NCBI RefSeq assembly: GCF_963921235.1
Contig: NC_086108.1
Location: 3,162,001-3,226,000 of the forward strand
Source of the DNA: Mobula hypostoma
Taxonomy: Eukaryota
Reading direction: 5' to 3'
Length of the DNA: 64,000 nt
The notes under the pieces are model-generated. The model was not told the DNA's origin. It did not search any database and worked only from the letters and a program-made list of their open reading frames with translations. The position numbers were made by a program, and so were the translations under genes. The first letter of the stretch is position 1. Every line of letters begins with the position of its first letter. Below are positions 32,073-40,400 of this stretch, one piece after another.

Positions 32073-33575
32073 GAAACATAGAAAACATACAGCACAATAC
32101 AGGCCCTTCGGCCCGAACCTTAGAACCACCTAGACTTTACCCATAGCCCTCTATTTTTCTAAGCTCCATGTATCCATCCAGGAGTCTCTTAAAAGATTCT
32201 ATCATTTCCGCCTCCACCACCACCGTTGGCAGCCCATTCCATGCACTCACTACTCTCTGCGTAAAAAACTTACCCCTGACATCTCCTCTGTACCTACTCC
32301 CCGGCACCTTAAACCTGTGTCCTCTTGTGTTAGCCATTTCAGCCCTGGGAAAAAGTCTCTGACTCTCCACACGATCAATGCCCCTCATCATCTTATACAC
32401 CTCTATCAGGTCACCTCTCATCCTCCGTCGCTCCAAGGAGAAAAGGCCGAGTTTTCATAAGGCATGCTCCCCAATCCAGGCAACATCCTTGTAAATCTCC
32501 TCTGCTGTAGTGAGGCGACCAGAACTGAGCACAGTACTCCAAGTGGGGTCTGACCACGGTCTTATATAGCTGCAACATTAGCCCTCGGCTCCTAAACTCA
32601 ATTCCACGATTGATGAAGGCCAATACACCGTATGCCTTCTTAACCACAGAGTCAACTTGTGCAGCTGCTTTGAGCGTCCTATGGACTTGGACCCCAAGAT
32701 CCCTCTGATCCTCCACGCTGCCAAGAGTCTTACCATTAATACTATATTCTGCCATCATATTTGACCTACAAAATGAACCACTTCACAGTTATCTGGGTTG
32801 AACTCCATCTGCCACTTCTCAGCCCAGTTTTGCATCCTATTGATGTTCCGCTGTAACCTCTGACAGCCCTCCACACTATCTACAACACCCCCAACCTTTG
32901 TGTCAACAGCAAACTTACTAACCCATCCCTCCACTTCCTCATCCAGGTCATTCATAAAAATCACGAAGAGTAGGGGTTCCAGAACTGATCCCTGAGGCAC
33001 ACCACTGGTCACTGACCTCCATGCAGAATATGATCCGTTTACAACCACTCTTTGTCTTCTGTGGGCAAGCCAGTTCTGGATCCACAAAGCAATGTCCCCT
33101 TGGATCCCATGCCTCCTTACTTTCTCAATAAGCCTTGCATGGGGTACCTTATCAAATGCCTTGCTGAAATCCATATACACTACATCTACTGCTCTACCTT
33201 CATCAATGTGTTTAGTCACACCCTCAAAAAATTCAATCAGGCTCGTAAGGCACAACCTGCCTTTGACAAAGCCATGCTGACTATTCCTAATCATATTATA
33301 CCTCTCCAAATGTTCATAAATCCTGCCTCTCAGGATCTTCTCCATCAACTTACCAACCACTGAAGTAAGACTCACTGGTGTATAATTTCCTGGGCTATCT
33401 CTACTTCCCTCCTTGAATAAGGGAACAACATCCGCAACCCTCCAATCCTCCAGAACCTCTCCCATCCCCATTGATGATGCAAAGATCATCGCCAGAGGCT
33501 CAGCAATCTCCTCCCTCACCTCCCACAGTAGCCTGGGGTACATCTCATCCAGTCCGGGTGACTTATCCAACTTGA
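32073..33575 (-). mobile_element. 5'-truncated CR1 (same subfamily as 9222-11485 and 34121-40430)
   Basis: ORF 32755-33636 with YTPVSLTS, DFSKAFDKVPH, GVPQGSVL, FAVDTK; CTATGTTT tail at about 32075. Confidence 0.9.
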
Positions 33576-35330
33576 AAAGCCATTCTCTTATTTTGTGAAT
33601 CAGTGACCCACAGCTGCCTGTGGCAAAGAAGTCCACGGACTCACAACTGTCTGGCTAAAGAAATTCCTCCTCATCTCTGTTCTAAATGGGTGTACTTCTA
33701 TCCTGAGGCTGTGAGTCTTAGACTCCCCCACCATAGGAAACATCGTCCTCATATCCACTATTGAGGCCCTTCCATATTCACCAGGTTTCAATGAGATCCC
33801 CACTCATTCTTCTAAACTCCAGTGAGTACAGGCCCAGATATATCAAACTCACCTCGGACATTAACCCTTTTGTCCCTGAGATTATTCTCATAACCCTCCT
33901 CTGGATCCTCTCCAATGCCAGTATATCATTTCTTAGATAAGGGGCCCAAAACTGATCATAATACTCTAAGTGTGGTTTGGCCAAAGGAATTGAAGAGTCA
34001 CTTTGATGACTCTGGTAACCCCTGTACAGGATTTTGTTCACACTGTATCTGTAGAAACTGGGTTCCCATTATTTCCTTAAGGTTGTTATAGTTGGGGATA
34101 AGCTCCCACTACCTACTAAAAAAACATAGAGACATAGAAAAACCTACAACACAATACAGGCCCTTTGATCCACAATGCTATGCTGAACATGTACTTACTT
34201 TAGAAATATGTACTTACTTAGAAATTACCTAGGGTTACCCATAGCCCTTTATTTTTCTAAGCTCCATGTACTTATCCAGGAGTCTCTTAAAAAACCCTAT
34301 CGTGTCCGCCTCCACCACCGTCGCCAGCAGCCCATTCCACACACTCACCACTCCCTGTGTAAAAAACTTACCCCTGAGATCTCCTCTGTACCTACTCCCC
34401 AGCACCTTAAACCTGTGTCCTGTCATGTTAGACATTTCAGCCCTGGGAAAAAGCCTCTGACTATTCACATGATCAATGCCTCTCAACATCTTATACAACT
34501 CTATCAGGTCACCTCTCATCCTCAGTTGCTCCAAGGAGAAAAAGCCAAGTTCACTCAACCTATTCTCATAAGGCAAGCTCCCCAATCCAGGCAACATCCT
34601 TGTAAATCTCCTCTGAACACTTCCTATAGTTTCCACATCTTTCCTGTAGTGAGGTGACCAGAACTGAGCACAGTACTCCAATTGGGGTCTGACCAGGGTC
34701 CTATATACCTATATGGCTGCAATATTACCTCTCGGCTCTTAAACTCAATCCCACGATTGATGAAGGACAATGCACTGTATGCCTTCTTAACCACGGAGTC
34801 AACCTGCACGGCAGCTTTGAGCGTTCTGTGGACTCTGACCCGAAGATCCCTCTGATCCTCCACACTGCCAAGAGTCTTACAATTAATACTATATCCTACC
34901 ATCATATTTGACCTACCAAAATGAACCACCTCAAACTTATCTGTGTTGAACTCCATCTGCCACTTCTCAGCCCAGTTTTGCATCCTATCAATGCCTCGTT
35001 GTAACCTCTAACAGCCCTCCACACTATCCACAACACCCCCAAACCTTTGGGTCATCAGCAAATTTACTAACCCATCCCTCCATTTGCTCATCCAGGTCAT
35101 TTATAAAAATCACGAAGAGAAAGGATCCCAGAACAGATCCCTGAGGCAAATCACTGGTCACCGACCTCCATGCAGAATATAGCCCATCTACACTAGAACC
35201 ACTCTTTGCGTTCTGCGTGCAAGCCTGTTCTGGATCCACAAAGCAAGGACCCCTTGGATCCCATGCCTCCTAACTTTCCCAATAAGCCTTTCATGGGGTA
35301 CCATATCAAATGCCTTGCTGAAATCTATAT

Positions 35331-35541
35331 TGTGGTGATACCACGTGCAATGATGTGCCAGTACATGACTGGACAGCACTGAGCATGCGCAGAGTTTGCC
35401 AGAATGTTCCAGTGCATGGCGTGATTAAGACATGTTTGTTTATTACTGTAAGTAAAATTTCTCAAATTCTTCCAGAATAGAATTCTTTACTGTTAACCCA
35501 TGGTACGTTTAAATACAAACGTTTGTAGAAGAAATATAACA
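35331..35541 (+). repeat. 5' LTR
   Basis: TGTGGTGATACCA...GAAGAAATATAACA, homologous to 37304-37486. Confidence 0.92.
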
Positions 35542-35556
35542 TGGTGTCAGGAGTGG
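35542..35556 (+). promoter_or_regulatory. Primer binding site, tRNA-Leu-like
   Basis: TGGTGTCAGGAGTGG directly after the LTR-terminal CA; resembles the complement of the tRNA-Leu 3' end used by many fish Gypsy elements (recalled). Confidence 0.7.
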
Positions 35557-35640
35557 TTTTTGGAAGAATAATACGGGAGAATCAAGAATCGAAGATAATC
35601 AAAAAAAAAAGAAGAAAAAAGTTTGAACTGTAACGGTAAA

Positions 35641-36470
35641 ATGGAAGGTTTACAACCCCCACCAAAATTGCAGCTGACTGGCAATGTAGCAGAGAATTGG
35701 AGGATCTTCAAAGAACAGTTTGAAATATATTTATCAGCGATCAGAGCTGATAGAAAAGCAGACAAAACTAAAGCTGTGATCCTGCTCTATGTAATCGGAA
35801 CTGCCGCGCTAGAGGTATACAATAATTTTGTCTTTGAAGATGGAGATAATTTCAATTTAAAGTCGATAATGGACAGATTTGAAGTATTTTGTATACCTAA
35901 GCGTAATTTAACGTATGAACGATATAAATTCTTCACATGTGCACAAAGGGCTGCTGAAATGATTGATCAGTACATTACGGAGTGAAGAAAGTGTAGTAGA
36001 ACGTGCGAGTTTGGATTGCTCACAGACTCTCTTATTAAAGATAGACTAGTTTGTGGCATTCGAGATAATGCACTAAGAGAAGGGCTGTGGAGAGAGCAAG
36101 ATTTAAGTTTCGAAAAGCTTTCACGCTCTGCAAAGCTTCTGAGACCATAATGTTGCAGGCTGAAGAGCTTTTTGTCGAAAACTACAATGCAAGCGCCGTA
36201 AAAAAGCGCGAATATATCAAGAAATATAATAATATGTCGGCAAAACCGACAGTGAGCAAGACGGCATTTGAAAGAAAAAAGTCATGTGATCGCTGTGCAC
36301 GGGAACATCGCCCAAAATCAGTGTTTCACATATGGCAAAATTTGCTACAACTGCTGTAAGATTAATCATTGTTCACACTGTTGTAGAAGTAGAAAGAAGG
36401 AAAATAAAATGAAACAAGTAAATGCAGTGATTGAAGATGAACGTGAGGAATTTTATATAGATGTGCTTTG
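35641..36470 (+). pseudogene. gag: Degenerate Gypsy gag (premature stop at 35983-35985, frameshifts)
   Basis: MEGLQPPPKLQLTGNVAENWRIFKEQFEIYL...NLTYERYKFF...CEFGLLTDSLIKDRLVCGI, then two Zn-knuckle-like motifs (CDRCAREH; CYNCCKINHCSHCC). Confidence 0.85.
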
Positions 36471-36474
36471 TGCA

Positions 36475-37071
36475 AATGCTGACATGGGGAATATAAAAGC
36501 AGTAGCTGCAGTGTCTGAGACGACCAAACAGGAGGCAACTGATGATGTGAAAGAGCAATGGCAGGAGGAGGTTGCTTCAATGCAAGCGATAATGAGAGAG
36601 ACACTGAGAGAATATGAGATCCGGTCTCATCATCATCTAGAGCAAGTATGTTCACAGTGGGCACAGTATAAGGAAGAAGTGAAAGCACAAGTAACAGAAT
36701 TGAGAAGTTTTATTGAAATAGTGAAGTCTCAGCGTAAAAGAGAGACTACACCGTTAATGAATGAATTAAATGAAGAAAAGAAGATTTGTATTTCATTACA
36801 AATGGGAGTGGAAGGAATTAGGAAAGATACAGTCCAAACAGAAGCAGGGAAGCAGATTGCTGAGGAGGATAGCGTGAACTGCTTACCTGAAACTCCAGAT
36901 TCTAACCAGGAGGCATGTGAGAGTATACCAAAAAGTTTAGTTGAGATACATAAAGAAAAGCTTAAAGCAGAAAAGCAGAAAAAGAAGAAGCACAAGAAGG
37001 GCCATGGCCCAGATAGCGAAGAGCCAACTTCAGAGTTTCAGCTAGCTGATATAGATTTGTTTATTGGTTAA
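36475..37071 (+). other. Captured host-derived coding fragments inside the LTR element (RABEP1-like, SH3KBP1/CIN85-like, unknown K-rich segment), in frame with the gag C-terminus
   Basis: Continuous ORF 36268-37071 runs from the gag knuckle into NIKAVAAVSETTKQEATDDVKEQWQEEVASMQAIMRE (Rabaptin-like) and QVTELRSFIEIVKSQRKRE...ELNEEKKICISLQM (CIN85/CD2AP C-terminal coil-like). Similarity recalled, not searched. Confidence 0.8.
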
Positions 37072-37303
37072 TGTTGTTACTTGTTTTTCTTTTTAAGGAA
37101 AAGAAGATGTGATTCTTCAGAGATTCAGTTAACTGATGAAGACGAAACAAAACATGTAAATAATAACAAGGAAACACAAGATCTGTGTGTACCACTTAGA
37201 AGGTCTACTCATGTTCATAAACCCACAGAGAGATTGATGAGACTTGTTGAATTATGCCTTTGCTTTGATTAATGTTGTTAATTTTTTTTTAAGTAAAGGA
37301 AGA

Positions 37304-37486
37304 TGTGGTGATACCATGTGCAATGATGTGCCAATACATGATTGGACAGCACTGAGCTGCATGGGGTTTACCAGTAAGTTCCAGCACGTGGCGTAATTAA
37401 GACGTGTTTGTTTATTACTGTAAATAAAAGTTCTCTAATTCTTCCAGAATATGATTTTTTACTGTTAAAATAGAAGAAATATAACA
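37304..37486 (+). repeat. 3' LTR (28 bp shorter than the 5' LTR)
   Basis: TGTGGTGATACCA...AATAAA...GAAGAAATATAACA; preceded by a polypurine tract. Confidence 0.92.
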
Positions 37487-40400
37487 CATACCTACTACAT
37501 CTACAGCTCTTCCTTCATCAGTGTCTAGTCACATTCTCAAAAATTTCAATTAGGCTCGTAAGGCATGACCTGCCTTTCACAAAGCCATGCTGACTATTCC
37601 TAATCATATTATGCTTCTCCAAATGTTCATAAATCCTGCCTCTCAGGATCTTCTCCATCAACTTACCAACCACTGAAGTAAGACTCACAGGTCTATAATT
37701 TCCTGGGCTATCTCTACTCCCTTTCTTGAAAAAGGGAACAACATCTGCAAGCCTCCAGTCCTCTGGAACCTCTCCCGTCCCCATTGATGATGCAAAGATC
37801 ATTGCCAGAGGCTCAGCAATCCCTTCCCTTGCTTCCCACAGTGGCCTGGGGTATATCTCCTCGAGTCCCGGAGACTTATCCAACTTGATGCTTTCCAAAA
37901 GCTCCAGGACATCCTCTTCCTTAATATCTACATGCTCAAGCTTTTCAGTCCACTGTAAGTCATCCCTACAATCGCCAAGATCCTTTTCTGTAGTGAATAC
38001 TGAAGCAAAGTACTCATTAAGTATCTCTGCTATCTCCTCCAGTTCCATACACACTTTTCCACTGTCACACTTGATTGGTCCTATTCTCTCACACCTTATC
38101 CTCTTACTCTTCACATACTTGTAGAATGCCTTGGGGTTTTCCTTAATCCTGCTTGCCAAGGCCTTCTCATGGCCCCTTCTGGCTCTTCTAATTTCATTCT
38201 TAAGTTCCTCCCTGCTAGCCTTAAAATTTTCTAGATCCCTATCATTGCCTAGTTTTTTGAACCTTTTGTAAGCTTTTCTTTTCTTCTTGACTAGACTTTC
38301 AACAGTCTTTGTACACTACAATTCCTGTACCCTACCATCCTTTCCCTGTCTCATTAGAGTGTACCTGTGCAGAACACCATGCAAATATCCCCTGAACATT
38401 TGTCACATTTCTTCTGTACATTTCCCTGAGAACATCTGATCCCAATTTACATTTCCAAGTTCCTGCTTGATAGCTTCATATTTCCCCTTACTCCAATTAA
38501 ATGTTTTCCTAACTTATCTGTTCCTATCCCTCTCCAAATTTCTGGTAAAGGAAATAGAATTGGTATCACTATCTCCAAAATGCTCTCCCACTGAGAGACC
38601 TGACACCTGACCAGGTTCATTTCCCAATACCAGATCATGTACAGCCTCTCCTCTTGTAGGCTTAGCTACATATTGTGTCAAGAAACCTTCCTGAACACAC
38701 CAAACAAACTCCACCCCATCTAAACCCCTCACTCTAGGGAGATGCCAATTGATATTTGGGAAATTGAAATCTCCCACCACAACAACCCTGTTATTATTAC
38801 ACCTTTCCAGAATCTGTCTCCCTATCTTCTCCTCGATGTCCCTACTACTATTGAGTGGTCTATAAAAAACACCCAGTAGAGTTATTGACCCTTTCCTGTT
38901 CCTAACTTCCACCCACAGAGATTCTGTAGACAATCCTCCATGACTTCCTCCTTTTCTGCAGCCGTGACACTATCTCTGATCAACAGTGCCACACCCCCAC
39001 CTCTTTTGCCTCCCTCCCTGTCCTTCCTGAAACATCTAAAGCCTGGCACTCTAAGTAGCCATTCCTGCCCCTGAGCCATCCAGGTCTATGTAATGGCCAC
39101 AACATCATAGCTCCAAGTGCTGACCCACGCTTTTAAGTTAATCCGCTTTGTTCATGATATCTCTTGGATTAAAATAGACACATCTCAAACCATTGGTCTG
39201 AGCGTATCTCTTCTTTATTACATGTCTGTCCTCCCTCTCACACTGCCTACAAGCTTTCTCTATTTGTGAGCCAACCTCCCTTTCCTCCGTCTCTTCAGTT
39301 CGGTTCCTACCCCCCCCCCCCCCAGCAATTCTAGTTTAAACTCTCTCCAATAGCCTTAGCAAACCTCCCCGCCAGGATATTGGTTCCCCTGGGATTCAAG
39401 TGCAACCCATCCTTATTGAACAGGTCATGCCTGTCCCAAAAGAGGTCCCAATGATCCAGAAATTTGAACCCTTGCCCCTGCTCCAATCTCTCAGCCACGC
39501 ATTTATCCTCCACCTCACTCTGTTCCCATACTCACTGTCACGTGGCACAGGCAGTAATCCCAAGATTACTACCCTTGTGGTTCTGCTTCTCAACTTCTTT
39601 CCTAACTCCCTGTAGTCTGTTTTCAGGACTGCCTCCCTTTTCCTGCCTATGTCGTTGGTACCAATATGTACCACGACCTCTGGCTGTTCACCTTCCCACT
39701 TCAGGATATCGTGGATGTGATCAGAAACATCCCGGACCCTGGCACCTTGGAGGCAAACTACCATCTGAGTTTCTTTCCTGTGTCCACAGAATCGCCTGTC
39801 TGACCCCCTAACTATAGAGTCCCCTATCATTGCTGCCATCCTCTTTCTTTCCCTACCCTTCTGAGCCACAAGGCCAGACTCTGTGCCAGAGGCACGGCCA
39901 CTGTTGCTTCCCCCAGGTAGGCCATCCCCCCCAACAGTACTCAAACAGGAGCACTTATTGTGAAGGGGTATGGGTACAGCCACAGGGGTACTCTCTAGTG
40001 TCTGACTTTTGCCCTTCCCTCTCCTGTCTGTTACGCAGTTATCTGTCTCCCCAGGCCCCGGTGTGACTACCTGCCTATAGCTCCTCTCTATCACCTCCTC
40101 ACTCTCCCTGACCAGACGAAGGTCATCGAGCTGCATCTCCATTTCACTAACATGGTCCCTGAGGAGCTGCAGCTCGATGCACTTGACACAGATGTGGCCA
40201 TCCAGGAGGCTGGGAGTCTCCCAGACATCCCACATCCGACACCCAGTACAGAACACCGGCCTCACAGACATACTTCCTGTTCCTATCCTTCACAAGTATC
40301 TTACCTCGCCTCGGTCCATTATCGCCAAAGCCCTCCTACTCTATAAAGCTGCCTTCTTTTTAAATTCTTCCTGCCAGTCTAACCCGCTGACGTCCACACG

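Follow-up and report, generated by a model that had tools for sequence, protein, structure and literature searches.

A probable non-autonomous Ty3/Gypsy-type family with cDNA fragments of three host genes in place of the pol core in the ray Mobula hypostoma

Introduction

What kind of element keeps gag and both long terminal repeats (LTRs) but has, in the place of pol, an open frame resembling host proteins? The question is raised by a 2,156-bp LTR element, bounded at both ends by direct repeats, that spans positions 35331-37486 of a 64,000-nucleotide (nt) stretch of the Mobula hypostoma genome (assembly GCF_963921235.1, contig NC_086108.1, positions 3,162,001 to 3,226,000 of the forward strand). 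The whole stretch is called the window below, and coordinates refer to it unless a contig is named. We consider the element, with a probability of about 90%, to be a decayed copy of a non-autonomous Ty3/Gypsy-type family in which three host cDNA fragments, at least two of them spliced, replaced the pol core, and which was built stepwise and amplified in trans.

An initial annotation made from the sequence of the window had described paired LTRs, a primer-binding site (PBS) and a polypurine tract (PPT) around a gag with no protease (PR), reverse transcriptase (RT), RNase H or integrase (IN) core. It had proposed a non-autonomous 'cargo' family that joined host modules in frame to Gag by way of RNA. 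This proposal is supported by the host gene matches, by the introns missing from the cargo and by the 30 loci of the same architecture described below, while some of its details had to be revised.

Results

Identity of the cargo

The open frame 36256-37071 (271 amino acids, aa) begins in gag and crosses the host segments. Rabaptin was the sole Pfam family above thresholds in this frame (E 3.8e-30). Judged by similarity, the cargo is arranged, in sense orientation, in the order RABEP1, SH3KBP1 (CIN85), SLU7, which makes two endocytic adaptors and one splicing factor. The initial annotation had read the frame, up to 37071, as two endocytic segments and a lysine-rich tail; the two segments stand as RABEP1 and SH3KBP1, but the tail is SLU7, a splicing factor and a third host gene.

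For the RABEP1 part the best protein match had 81% identity (E 1e-24), with the top ray RABEP1 proteins at 76-81%. There were 497 database matches at E<=0.01; among the 120 longer matches listed, 119 carried PF03528 (Rabaptin), and the remaining one was SLU7. Frame residues 196-251 matched SLU7 with 79% identity over 56 aa.

The similarity of the middle piece to SH3KBP1 begins at 36673, within an overlap with RABEP1 at the junction. A phmmer search with this piece gave 20 matches among 1.8 billion representatives, two of them chimeras of transposable elements (TEs), and five of the seven matches looked up by name were SH3KBP1. Residues 616-666 of a ray SH3KBP1 protein (P0163) were 78% identical to the piece over 51 aa, and its PDB matches were the CIN85 coiled-coil entries 5ABS and 2N64 (E 5e-11 and 2e-10). 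The phmmer search, the named matches and PDB thus all pointed to SH3KBP1, which ruled out a reading of the piece as diverged RABEP1 residues ~226-270.

Matches this strong and specific, together with the lack of the cargo in two autonomous relatives (see below), speak against both ways in which the initial annotation might have failed, namely that the cargo was a generic coiled coil or that it was a normal part of autonomous Gypsy polyproteins.

The host RABEP1 gene was found on C71, with introns. Positions 36472-36598 were 96.1% identical over 127 nt to the end of its exon 3, and exon 4 begins with 88 nt that positions 36597-36684 match at 88.6% identity; the 9-kb intron between these exons is precisely missing from the cargo. 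The host SLU7 gene on C21 gave nine exon matches, while the other 69 genome matches covered residues 422-494 only. The SLU7 piece showed 90.5% and 89% identity to the host exons, and two introns of ~3.0 and ~5.7 kb are precisely missing from it. The host exon borders were canonical (GT-AG, apart from a single apparent GC donor), and translation of the exons, once joined, yields the known proteins. Since the RABEP1 and SLU7 cargo is colinear with the exons and three introns are gone, we infer that capture went through spliced RNA.

For the host SH3KBP1 gene, one exon (aa ~472-513) was placed on C18; a candidate for its last exon at C36:105877096 proved to be another TE copy and was rejected. 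Also rejected was a captured part of RABEP1 intron 2 (39 nt), suggested by a BLAST extension in one copy (L035), where the similarity was a chance T-rich one at the junction. By the junction reading, the capture in L035 begins 6 nt inside RABEP1 exon 3. Contigs of the public runs X1-X3, whose kind is not on record, contain the host versions and continue as host sequence beyond 36472, 36673, 36841 and 37022. A separate observation concerns the RABEP1 gene models P0016 and P0080 (electric ray and sturgeon), which carry Pfam RVT_1; here transposon sequence was probably merged into the model.

Table 1. Features of the element and of its insertion site in window coordinates (TSD, target-site duplication; LINE, long interspersed nuclear element; ORF, open reading frame; UTR, untranslated region)
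Feature	Position	Strand	Basis or remark
LINE hosting the element; RT ORF split by the insertion	34235..38315	-	Pfam RVT_1
5' TSD (TATAT)	35326..35330	.	one transition from CATAT of paralogous LINE copy
5' LTR, TGTGG...ATAACA, 211 nt	35331..35541	+	direct-repeat comparison
PBS (TGGTGTCAGGAGTGG), 15 nt just 3' of 5' LTR	35542..35556	+	complement of tRNA-Leu(CAG) 3' end + CCA
gag remnant	35641..36471	+	ATG at 35641; 160 aa aligned with gag of autonomous relative L046 at 66% identity
CCHC zinc knuckle (CYNCCKINHCSHCC), CX2CX4HX4C	36343..36384	+	motif only
RABEP1 cDNA fragment, aa ~86-157: 126 nt from the end of exon 3 + 87 nt from the start of exon 4	36472..36684	+	host exons on G000:C71
SH3KBP1 (CIN85) C-terminal coiled coil, aa 616-666	36685..~36830	+	phmmer, named proteins, PDB
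IN-tail scrap TVQTE, former SH3KBP1-to-IN junction region, before SLU7	36831..36845	+	comparison with L046 pol end
SLU7 cDNA fragment, ~21 nt of exon end + whole 83-nt exon + ~81 nt of next, aa ~428-490	36841..37022	+	host exons on G000:C21
IN-tail scrap EPTSEFQLAD, native frame, after SLU7	37019..37050	+	comparison with L046 pol end
Extra copy of element 3' end: 3' UTR, PPT-like AAGGAAAAGAAGA, LTR start TGTGAT	37051..37111	+	93.8% over 48 nt to L046 6891-6938
IN C-terminal tail remnant + 3' UTR	37112..37272	+	element positions 1785-2126 = 77% identical to L046 6743-7079
PPT (AAGTAAAGGAAGA)	~37291..37303	+	read from sequence; L046 PPT at same position
3' LTR, TGTGG...ATAACA, 183 nt	37304..37486	+	direct-repeat comparison
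3' TSD (CATAC)	37487..37491	.	one transition from CATAT of paralogous LINE copy

Joins between the segments

At seven junctions read at the nucleotide level, the two sides had microhomology of 4-8 nt (AGAG/AGAGCTG, AAAT, GAAG, AAGA and CAAGGAGA), given as raw lengths. Where TE sequence meets RABEP1, the TE side GACACAGAG is followed by CTGAAG and the host reads GAAGAG before CTGAAG, with AGAG in common; in two copies (L031 and L032) this junction lies 70 codons deeper into RT, at AGAGCTG (7 nt). The gag-to-RABEP1 junction passes from TGTGAAAAT to GGCAAATGC with AAAT in common, and the RABEP1-to-SH3KBP1 junction from GAAGCAGTGGAA to GAAGAAGTGAAA. Some copies return from SH3KBP1 to RABEP1, at GAAGTGGAA. 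SLU7 is entered from the IN tail between CAGAAGAAGG and GCGAAGCGGGG (GAAG in common) and left between GTGAAGATG and GAAAGAGCC (AAGA in common). In the type of the public protein P0004, by a protein reading, RABEP1 meets the IN tail with CAAGGAGA on both sides (8 nt).

All nine junction or deletion events examined left gag, the host gene and the IN tail each in its native frame: TE to RABEP1, RABEP1 to IN tail, RT to SH3KBP1, SH3KBP1 to IN tail, RABEP1 to SH3KBP1 and the return, IN tail to SLU7, SLU7 to IN tail, and gag to RABEP1. Three of these frame readings lean on public gene predictions, which are biased to open frames; most were re-checked on DNA. The framing suggests that the ancestral chimera may have been translated.

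The IN tail itself was found in pieces. The initial annotation had noted one IN-tail-like remnant near 37195-37235; homology to the pol of L046 identifies this stretch as IN tail, but there are three scraps in all. The third scrap (37112-37260) reads SEIQLTDEDETKH and, further on, LRRSTHVHKPTERL, the latter (37195-37236) being homologous to the pol C-terminus LRRSTRVRKPPERL of the autonomous relative. Since scraps of the IN tail flank the SLU7 piece, SLU7 sits inside the integrase tail. The stop TAA of the open frame (37069-37071) is supplied by the extra copy of the 3' end, between the second and the third scrap.

Copies in the genome

A DNA search of the 3.48-Gb assembly, in which the best 40 of 1,341 candidates were scored, gave 59 matches. 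At least 30 loci (30/30 of those fetched) had the window architecture and the same junctions with 82-89% identity, and their flanking sequences differed. The third IN-tail scrap was present at >=50% coverage in 25 of these 30 window-type loci. Eleven copies had both LTR ends scorable; six of them had perfect 5-bp TSDs, three had TSDs agreeing at 4/5 positions and two were mismatched. One mismatched copy had another PBS directly after the LTR, which suggests a tandem arrangement. At L017 (C59:59226034-59231178) the 3' LTR was followed directly by a PBS and 375 nt of a second element, in tandem or with a shared LTR. Many independent insertions of an element with neither RT nor IN are what would be expected of a non-autonomous element mobilised in trans.

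The Kimura two-parameter (K2P) distance between the LTRs of 22 copies ranged from 0.047 to 0.158 with a median of 0.081. At an assumed 1-2.5e-9 substitutions per site per year this corresponds roughly to an insertion age of 15-40 Myr, and ray rates may be slower.

None of the 30 copies had an intact gag-cargo frame. Separate copies had open stretches of 362 aa (from before the ATG into RABEP1) and of 319 aa (from mid-gag across SH3KBP1 and SLU7 as far as the common stop). These stretches tile the gag-cargo frame; therefore, the ancestral frame was probably continuous over ~476 codons in window-copy coordinates, a state read from the tiling of copies.

With regard to expression, none of the runs on record as RNA is listed as containing the element's sequence. 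Contigs of independent public runs bridge the chimera junctions (X3 record 28, X1 record 5), but the low-depth bridging contigs in X1-X3 cannot be called transcripts, the kind of run being only guessed. Public proteins P0004, P0005 and P0129 of two dasyatid stingrays belong to this element family, as chimeras of gag knuckle, protease and cargo. Myliobatiform rays thus have the family in common, and it contaminates gene sets.

Longer relatives and the proposed course of assembly

The structures of 41 loci, including two autonomous relatives, were compared. In the R type, gag and PR are followed by RABEP1 exon 3 and 138 nt of exon 4, and then by the IN tail; it was found in L036, which is of the window's gag lineage, and in L031 (C45:33807500-33817499) and L032 (C21:3154000-3163999). 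The gag of L031 and L032 was 70-72% like that of the window, and their RABEP1 part was 91% like the window's and 95% like the host exons. The cargo being far more alike than gag between lineages, it probably moved between them by recombination.

The S type has PR, the RT N-terminus, ~130 C-terminal SH3KBP1 residues (from ~aa 540) and the IN tail. Its SH3KBP1 part has 92-94% protein identity to the ray protein, and the type was seen in P0129 and in 67 of 67 scored genome matches to SH3KBP1. A 101-aa C-terminal probe of SH3KBP1 gave 150 scored matches among 496 candidates. Many matches of this S-type sister family (e.g., L044, C36:105871000-105878000) were stop-free, in open frames of up to 563 aa.

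L035, L037 and L038 are of an R-S-R type, and L033 and L034 of a PR-R-S-SLU7 type. The window type (30 loci) has neither PR nor the initial 70 nt of captured exon 3. It appears to be a deletion derivative, as its longer relatives keep the protease and some of them the RT N-terminus as well.

We propose that the chimera was built stepwise in virus-like particles, by RT template switching guided by microhomology. In the R type, RABEP1 cDNA would have taken the place of the sequence that runs from the RT N-terminus up to the IN tail; separately, in a sister lineage, SH3KBP1 cDNA would have taken the same place (S type). The RNAs of the two types may then have recombined at the GAAG-AGTG-AA motif, and SLU7 cDNA may have been switched into the IN tail. 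An in-frame deletion of the protease and of the first 70 nt of the captured RABEP1 would have produced the window type. Autonomous relatives would have reverse-transcribed and integrated the products in trans, so that copies with 5-bp TSDs would have risen to tens or hundreds in number.

Autonomous relatives

The autonomous relative L046 is a 5.0-kb element with an LTR pair of 95.3% identity and a gag. Its pol contains RVT_1, RT_RNaseH(_2) and Integrase_H2C2 in that order according to Pfam, which called no IN core (rve) on frames that are short and broken. For Asp_protease_2, the relatives P0005 and P0129 gave matches below the Pfam cut-off. No gag family and no zf-CCHC was called by Pfam in the window element or in L046.

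Only two parts of the window element align to L046: LTR-gag, at 72%, and the final ~150 nt of pol together with PPT and LTR, at 77%. Nothing in it resembles the PR-RT-RNase H-IN stretch of L046, as the initial annotation had held for these domains. The pol end of L046 reads DEVRIQDKMNTWTQRATVLEEVQPR, a stop, YMVQTEEGTVLGRNCKGLKKEPTSEFQLTDADQTKH and, further on, LRRSTRVRKPPERLIETC before another stop. L046 and the window family agree in their start (TGTGGTG), in the PPT and in the IN tail. No similarity to the RABEP1, SH3KBP1 or SLU7 proteins was found in the autonomous relatives L045 and L046, so the cargo is not a normal part of these Gypsy polyproteins. Other repeat-derived ORFs flank the two relatives (L045 1326-2003 and 955-1422 on the minus strand; L046 7259-7804), among them a LINE-like RT tail.

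The window copy and its insertion site

The paired LTRs, the PBS and the PPT of the initial annotation were confirmed. Over the 183 nt that can be aligned, the two LTRs differ at 21 positions (K2P 0.127), and the 3' LTR has a 27-nt gap. The tRNA-Leu 3'-end pattern complementary to the PBS had 21 exact genomic matches vs 0 for a control, and ARAGORN called tRNA-Leu(cag) at both pattern loci examined. The stop and the frameshifts that had been noted in gag are also present: the stop is the in-frame TGA at 35983-35985, and the frameshifts, two that compensate each other, lie within 36069-36150 and 36256-36359. The window copy is dead and has no present function.

The element is inserted in a LINE, with RVT_1 model positions 4-59 in 37518-38312 and 112-155 in 35024-35266 (both on the minus strand; Pfam). 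LINE fragment copies at 33003-33507 and at 35152-35330 / 37521-37820 have 85-92% identity and lie ~2.1 kb apart (4.3 kb across the insertion). As the LTR element sits in the second copy, the first, uninterrupted one serves as an empty-site control, and it has CATAT at the equivalent site (33172-33176). The flanks of the element agree at 3/5 positions; given this CATAT, they can be read as a decayed 5-bp TSD.

Selection on the cargo

Instead of dN/dS among copies, we used the frequency spectrum of differences from the host exons, with 39 copies for RABEP1 and 32 for SLU7. The identity of copies to the host exons was 87.6-96.7% for RABEP1 and 87.6-92.4% for SLU7. Sites unlike the host in >=70% of copies numbered 4 of 338 in RABEP1 and 11 of 197 in SLU7. 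With so few sites unlike the host in most copies, the cargo must have been near the host sequence when the family expanded.

Rare variants (singletons or variants in <20% of copies) comprised 265 non-synonymous (N, stops included) and 83 synonymous (S) changes, and shared variants (>=20% of copies) 22 and 15, respectively. The odds ratio of N/S in shared vs rare variants was 0.46 (Fisher p 0.045), a comparison confounded by synonymous changes of the host lineage among the shared differences. Therefore, the spectrum gives at most a weak hint of constraint on the fusion protein.

Discussion

Several points weigh against the proposed origin. A direct autonomous partner was not found: the identity of L046 to the family reaches only ~72% in gag and 72-77% in the LTRs, and the 150 scored matches to the RT N-terminus contained no closer partner and no open frame longer than 629 aa. 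The evidence of intron loss covers RABEP1 and SLU7, two of the three cargo genes. The suggested order of events is based on parsimony over the 41 loci and not on a tree, and template switching is deduced from its putative products and not observed. All copy counts are lower bounds.

Could the chimera be no mobile family at all? That it is an assembly artefact, or that processed pseudogenes came to be nested by chance in an LTR element, has a negligible probability. Nothing was found in favour of either; identical junctions are present at 30 loci spread over many contigs, they are bridged by contigs from independent public runs, and the fragments in the window element have no poly-A tails or LINE-type TSDs around them. 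It is also highly improbable that this is a genuine host gene, or a gag fusion domesticated as a 'RABEP1-like' gene, as the public names of P0004, P0005 and P0129 ('rab GTPase-binding effector protein 1-like' or 'uncharacterized protein') might lead one to believe. The window copy has a stop and two frameshifts, none of the 30 copies is intact, dozens of dispersed copies have LTRs and TSDs, and RABEP1, SLU7 and SH3KBP1 themselves are intron-bearing genes at other places in the genome.

If the locus is a copy of an amplified non-autonomous family, as we favour, one may ask why its frame was kept open. The reason may lie at the RNA level: derivatives with an early stop would be lost through the decay of mRNA with a long 3' UTR or through poorer packaging, the cargo being neutral filler. 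We regard this explanation as less likely than not. The parental element encodes Gag-Pol as one ORF that ends just before the PPT (in L046, gag and pol are in the same frame, 2385 and 3534 both being 0 mod 3), the R, S and R-S frames continue into the native IN tail to the natural pol stop, and the N/S of the cargo is close to neutral. On the other hand, the window-type frame stops at 37071, some 230 nt short of the LTR, where the 3' end is rearranged, and this type still reached at least 30 copies; besides, the decay mechanism is one described for retroviruses and would have to apply here as well.

A fusion of Gag to coiled coils could also be useful to the element. Oligomerising modules might aid the assembly of a pol-less Gag, its entry into helper particles or the recruitment of adaptors, and an element with them might out-compete plain deletion derivatives. 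Nine of nine events in frame would have a chance of ~(1/3)^9, and the SH3KBP1 piece is exactly a solved self-associating coiled coil (residues 2-64 of the 66-residue chain 5ABS_A). The N/S counts (22/15 in shared vs 265/83 in rare variants) and a cargo 91-95% alike between lineages with gag only 70-72% alike point the same way. Yet the shortage of N changes is slight, and synonymous substitutions on the host side confound it; the SLU7 piece forms no coiled coil, recombination explains the similarity of the cargo between lineages equally well, and the frame of the putative fusion protein is intact in 0/30 copies. Overall, a benefit from the fusion protein seems unlikely to us. Its specific form takes the recurrent capture, exchange and framing of such coils to be no accident. 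This 'Gag-zipper', in which the Rabaptin-5 coil and the trimerising CIN85 coil were borrowed as a module for multimerisation, for co-assembly with a helper or for hetero-oligomerisation with host CIN85 and Rabaptin, and gave the family its copy-number success in rays, is distinctly speculative and improbable; it draws on endocytic adaptor roles that we presume these coils to have.

Among known systems, acutely transforming retroviruses carry Gag-onc fusion genes, are replication-defective and depend on a helper. The ray family resembles them in its plan (LTR, partial gag, in-frame spliced host cDNA, a remnant of a viral 3' gene, LTR) and in being defective and helper-dependent. Unlike them, it has no env, no sign of infectivity and no oncogene; its cargo is a structural coil or linker, and it is a germline-fixed amplified repeat. 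Large retrotransposon derivatives (LARDs) and TRIMs, the terminal-repeat retrotransposons in miniature, are non-autonomous LTR elements without pol, usually with non-coding internal regions. The ray family is like them in lacking pol, in its mobilisation in trans and in having termini, PBS and PPT in common with autonomous elements, but it keeps gag and a long chimeric ORF.

The closest precedents involve captured host sequence. Tan et al. 2016 (PMC5131818) describe LTR-mediated retroposition in animals, in which partial retrocopies replace internal TE sequence at microsimilarity (median 6 bp); multi-gene chimeras occur, and products can retropose again. Common to these cases and ours are intronless host cDNA (here RABEP1 and SLU7) in place of an internal TE ORF between LTRs, microsimilarity at junctions and non-autonomous spread. 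Those cases were mostly single- or low-copy and young (in fly, mosquito, zebrafish, chicken and mammals), whereas the present family has tens to hundreds of copies in a cartilaginous fish, and its three genes appear to have been added serially, partly by recombination between cargo-bearing lineages, with all junctions in frame.

Maize Bs1, as outlined in a review (PMC13317346), is an LTR element with three transduced host gene segments in a hybrid ORF that is transcribed and translated. The ray family likewise has three separate host segments in a hybrid ORF; in contrast to Bs1, a low-copy plant element by that account, it is an animal family of high copy number, and its fusion protein is a predicted one. 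He et al. 2025 (PMC12287698) report 254 bird endogenous retroviruses with host domains among >470,000, some domains occurring in different retroviral groups. These, too, are vertebrate retroelements carrying cellular domains; they are reported as rare, and they are complete retroviruses, while the ray cargo replaces pol and defines a whole repeat family. Our literature searches found no work linking RABEP1 or SH3KBP1 with retrotransposons in rays and nothing relevant on elasmobranch non-autonomous Gypsy elements. The mechanism is of a known kind; what is unusual is the serial assembly of three genes with preserved intermediates, the probable exchange of cargo between lineages, the amplification in a vertebrate and the nine of nine in-frame events.

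The family offers an example, at the base-pair level, of LTR-mediated exon shuffling in a cartilaginous fish, from a little-studied group, where exon borders, switch points and a likely order can be read from surviving intermediates. It indicates that pieces of host coding sequence can be multiplied by a vertebrate retroelement into tens or hundreds of copies. Public gene sets are already contaminated, with P0004 entered as 'RABEP1-like' and P0005 and P0129 as 'uncharacterized proteins' in two stingrays. The nine in-frame events raise the question of whether selection at the TE level acted on the Gag fusion protein or on the continuity of the ORF only. Were these pieces of trafficking adaptors expressed, they might interfere with the very host proteins from which they came.

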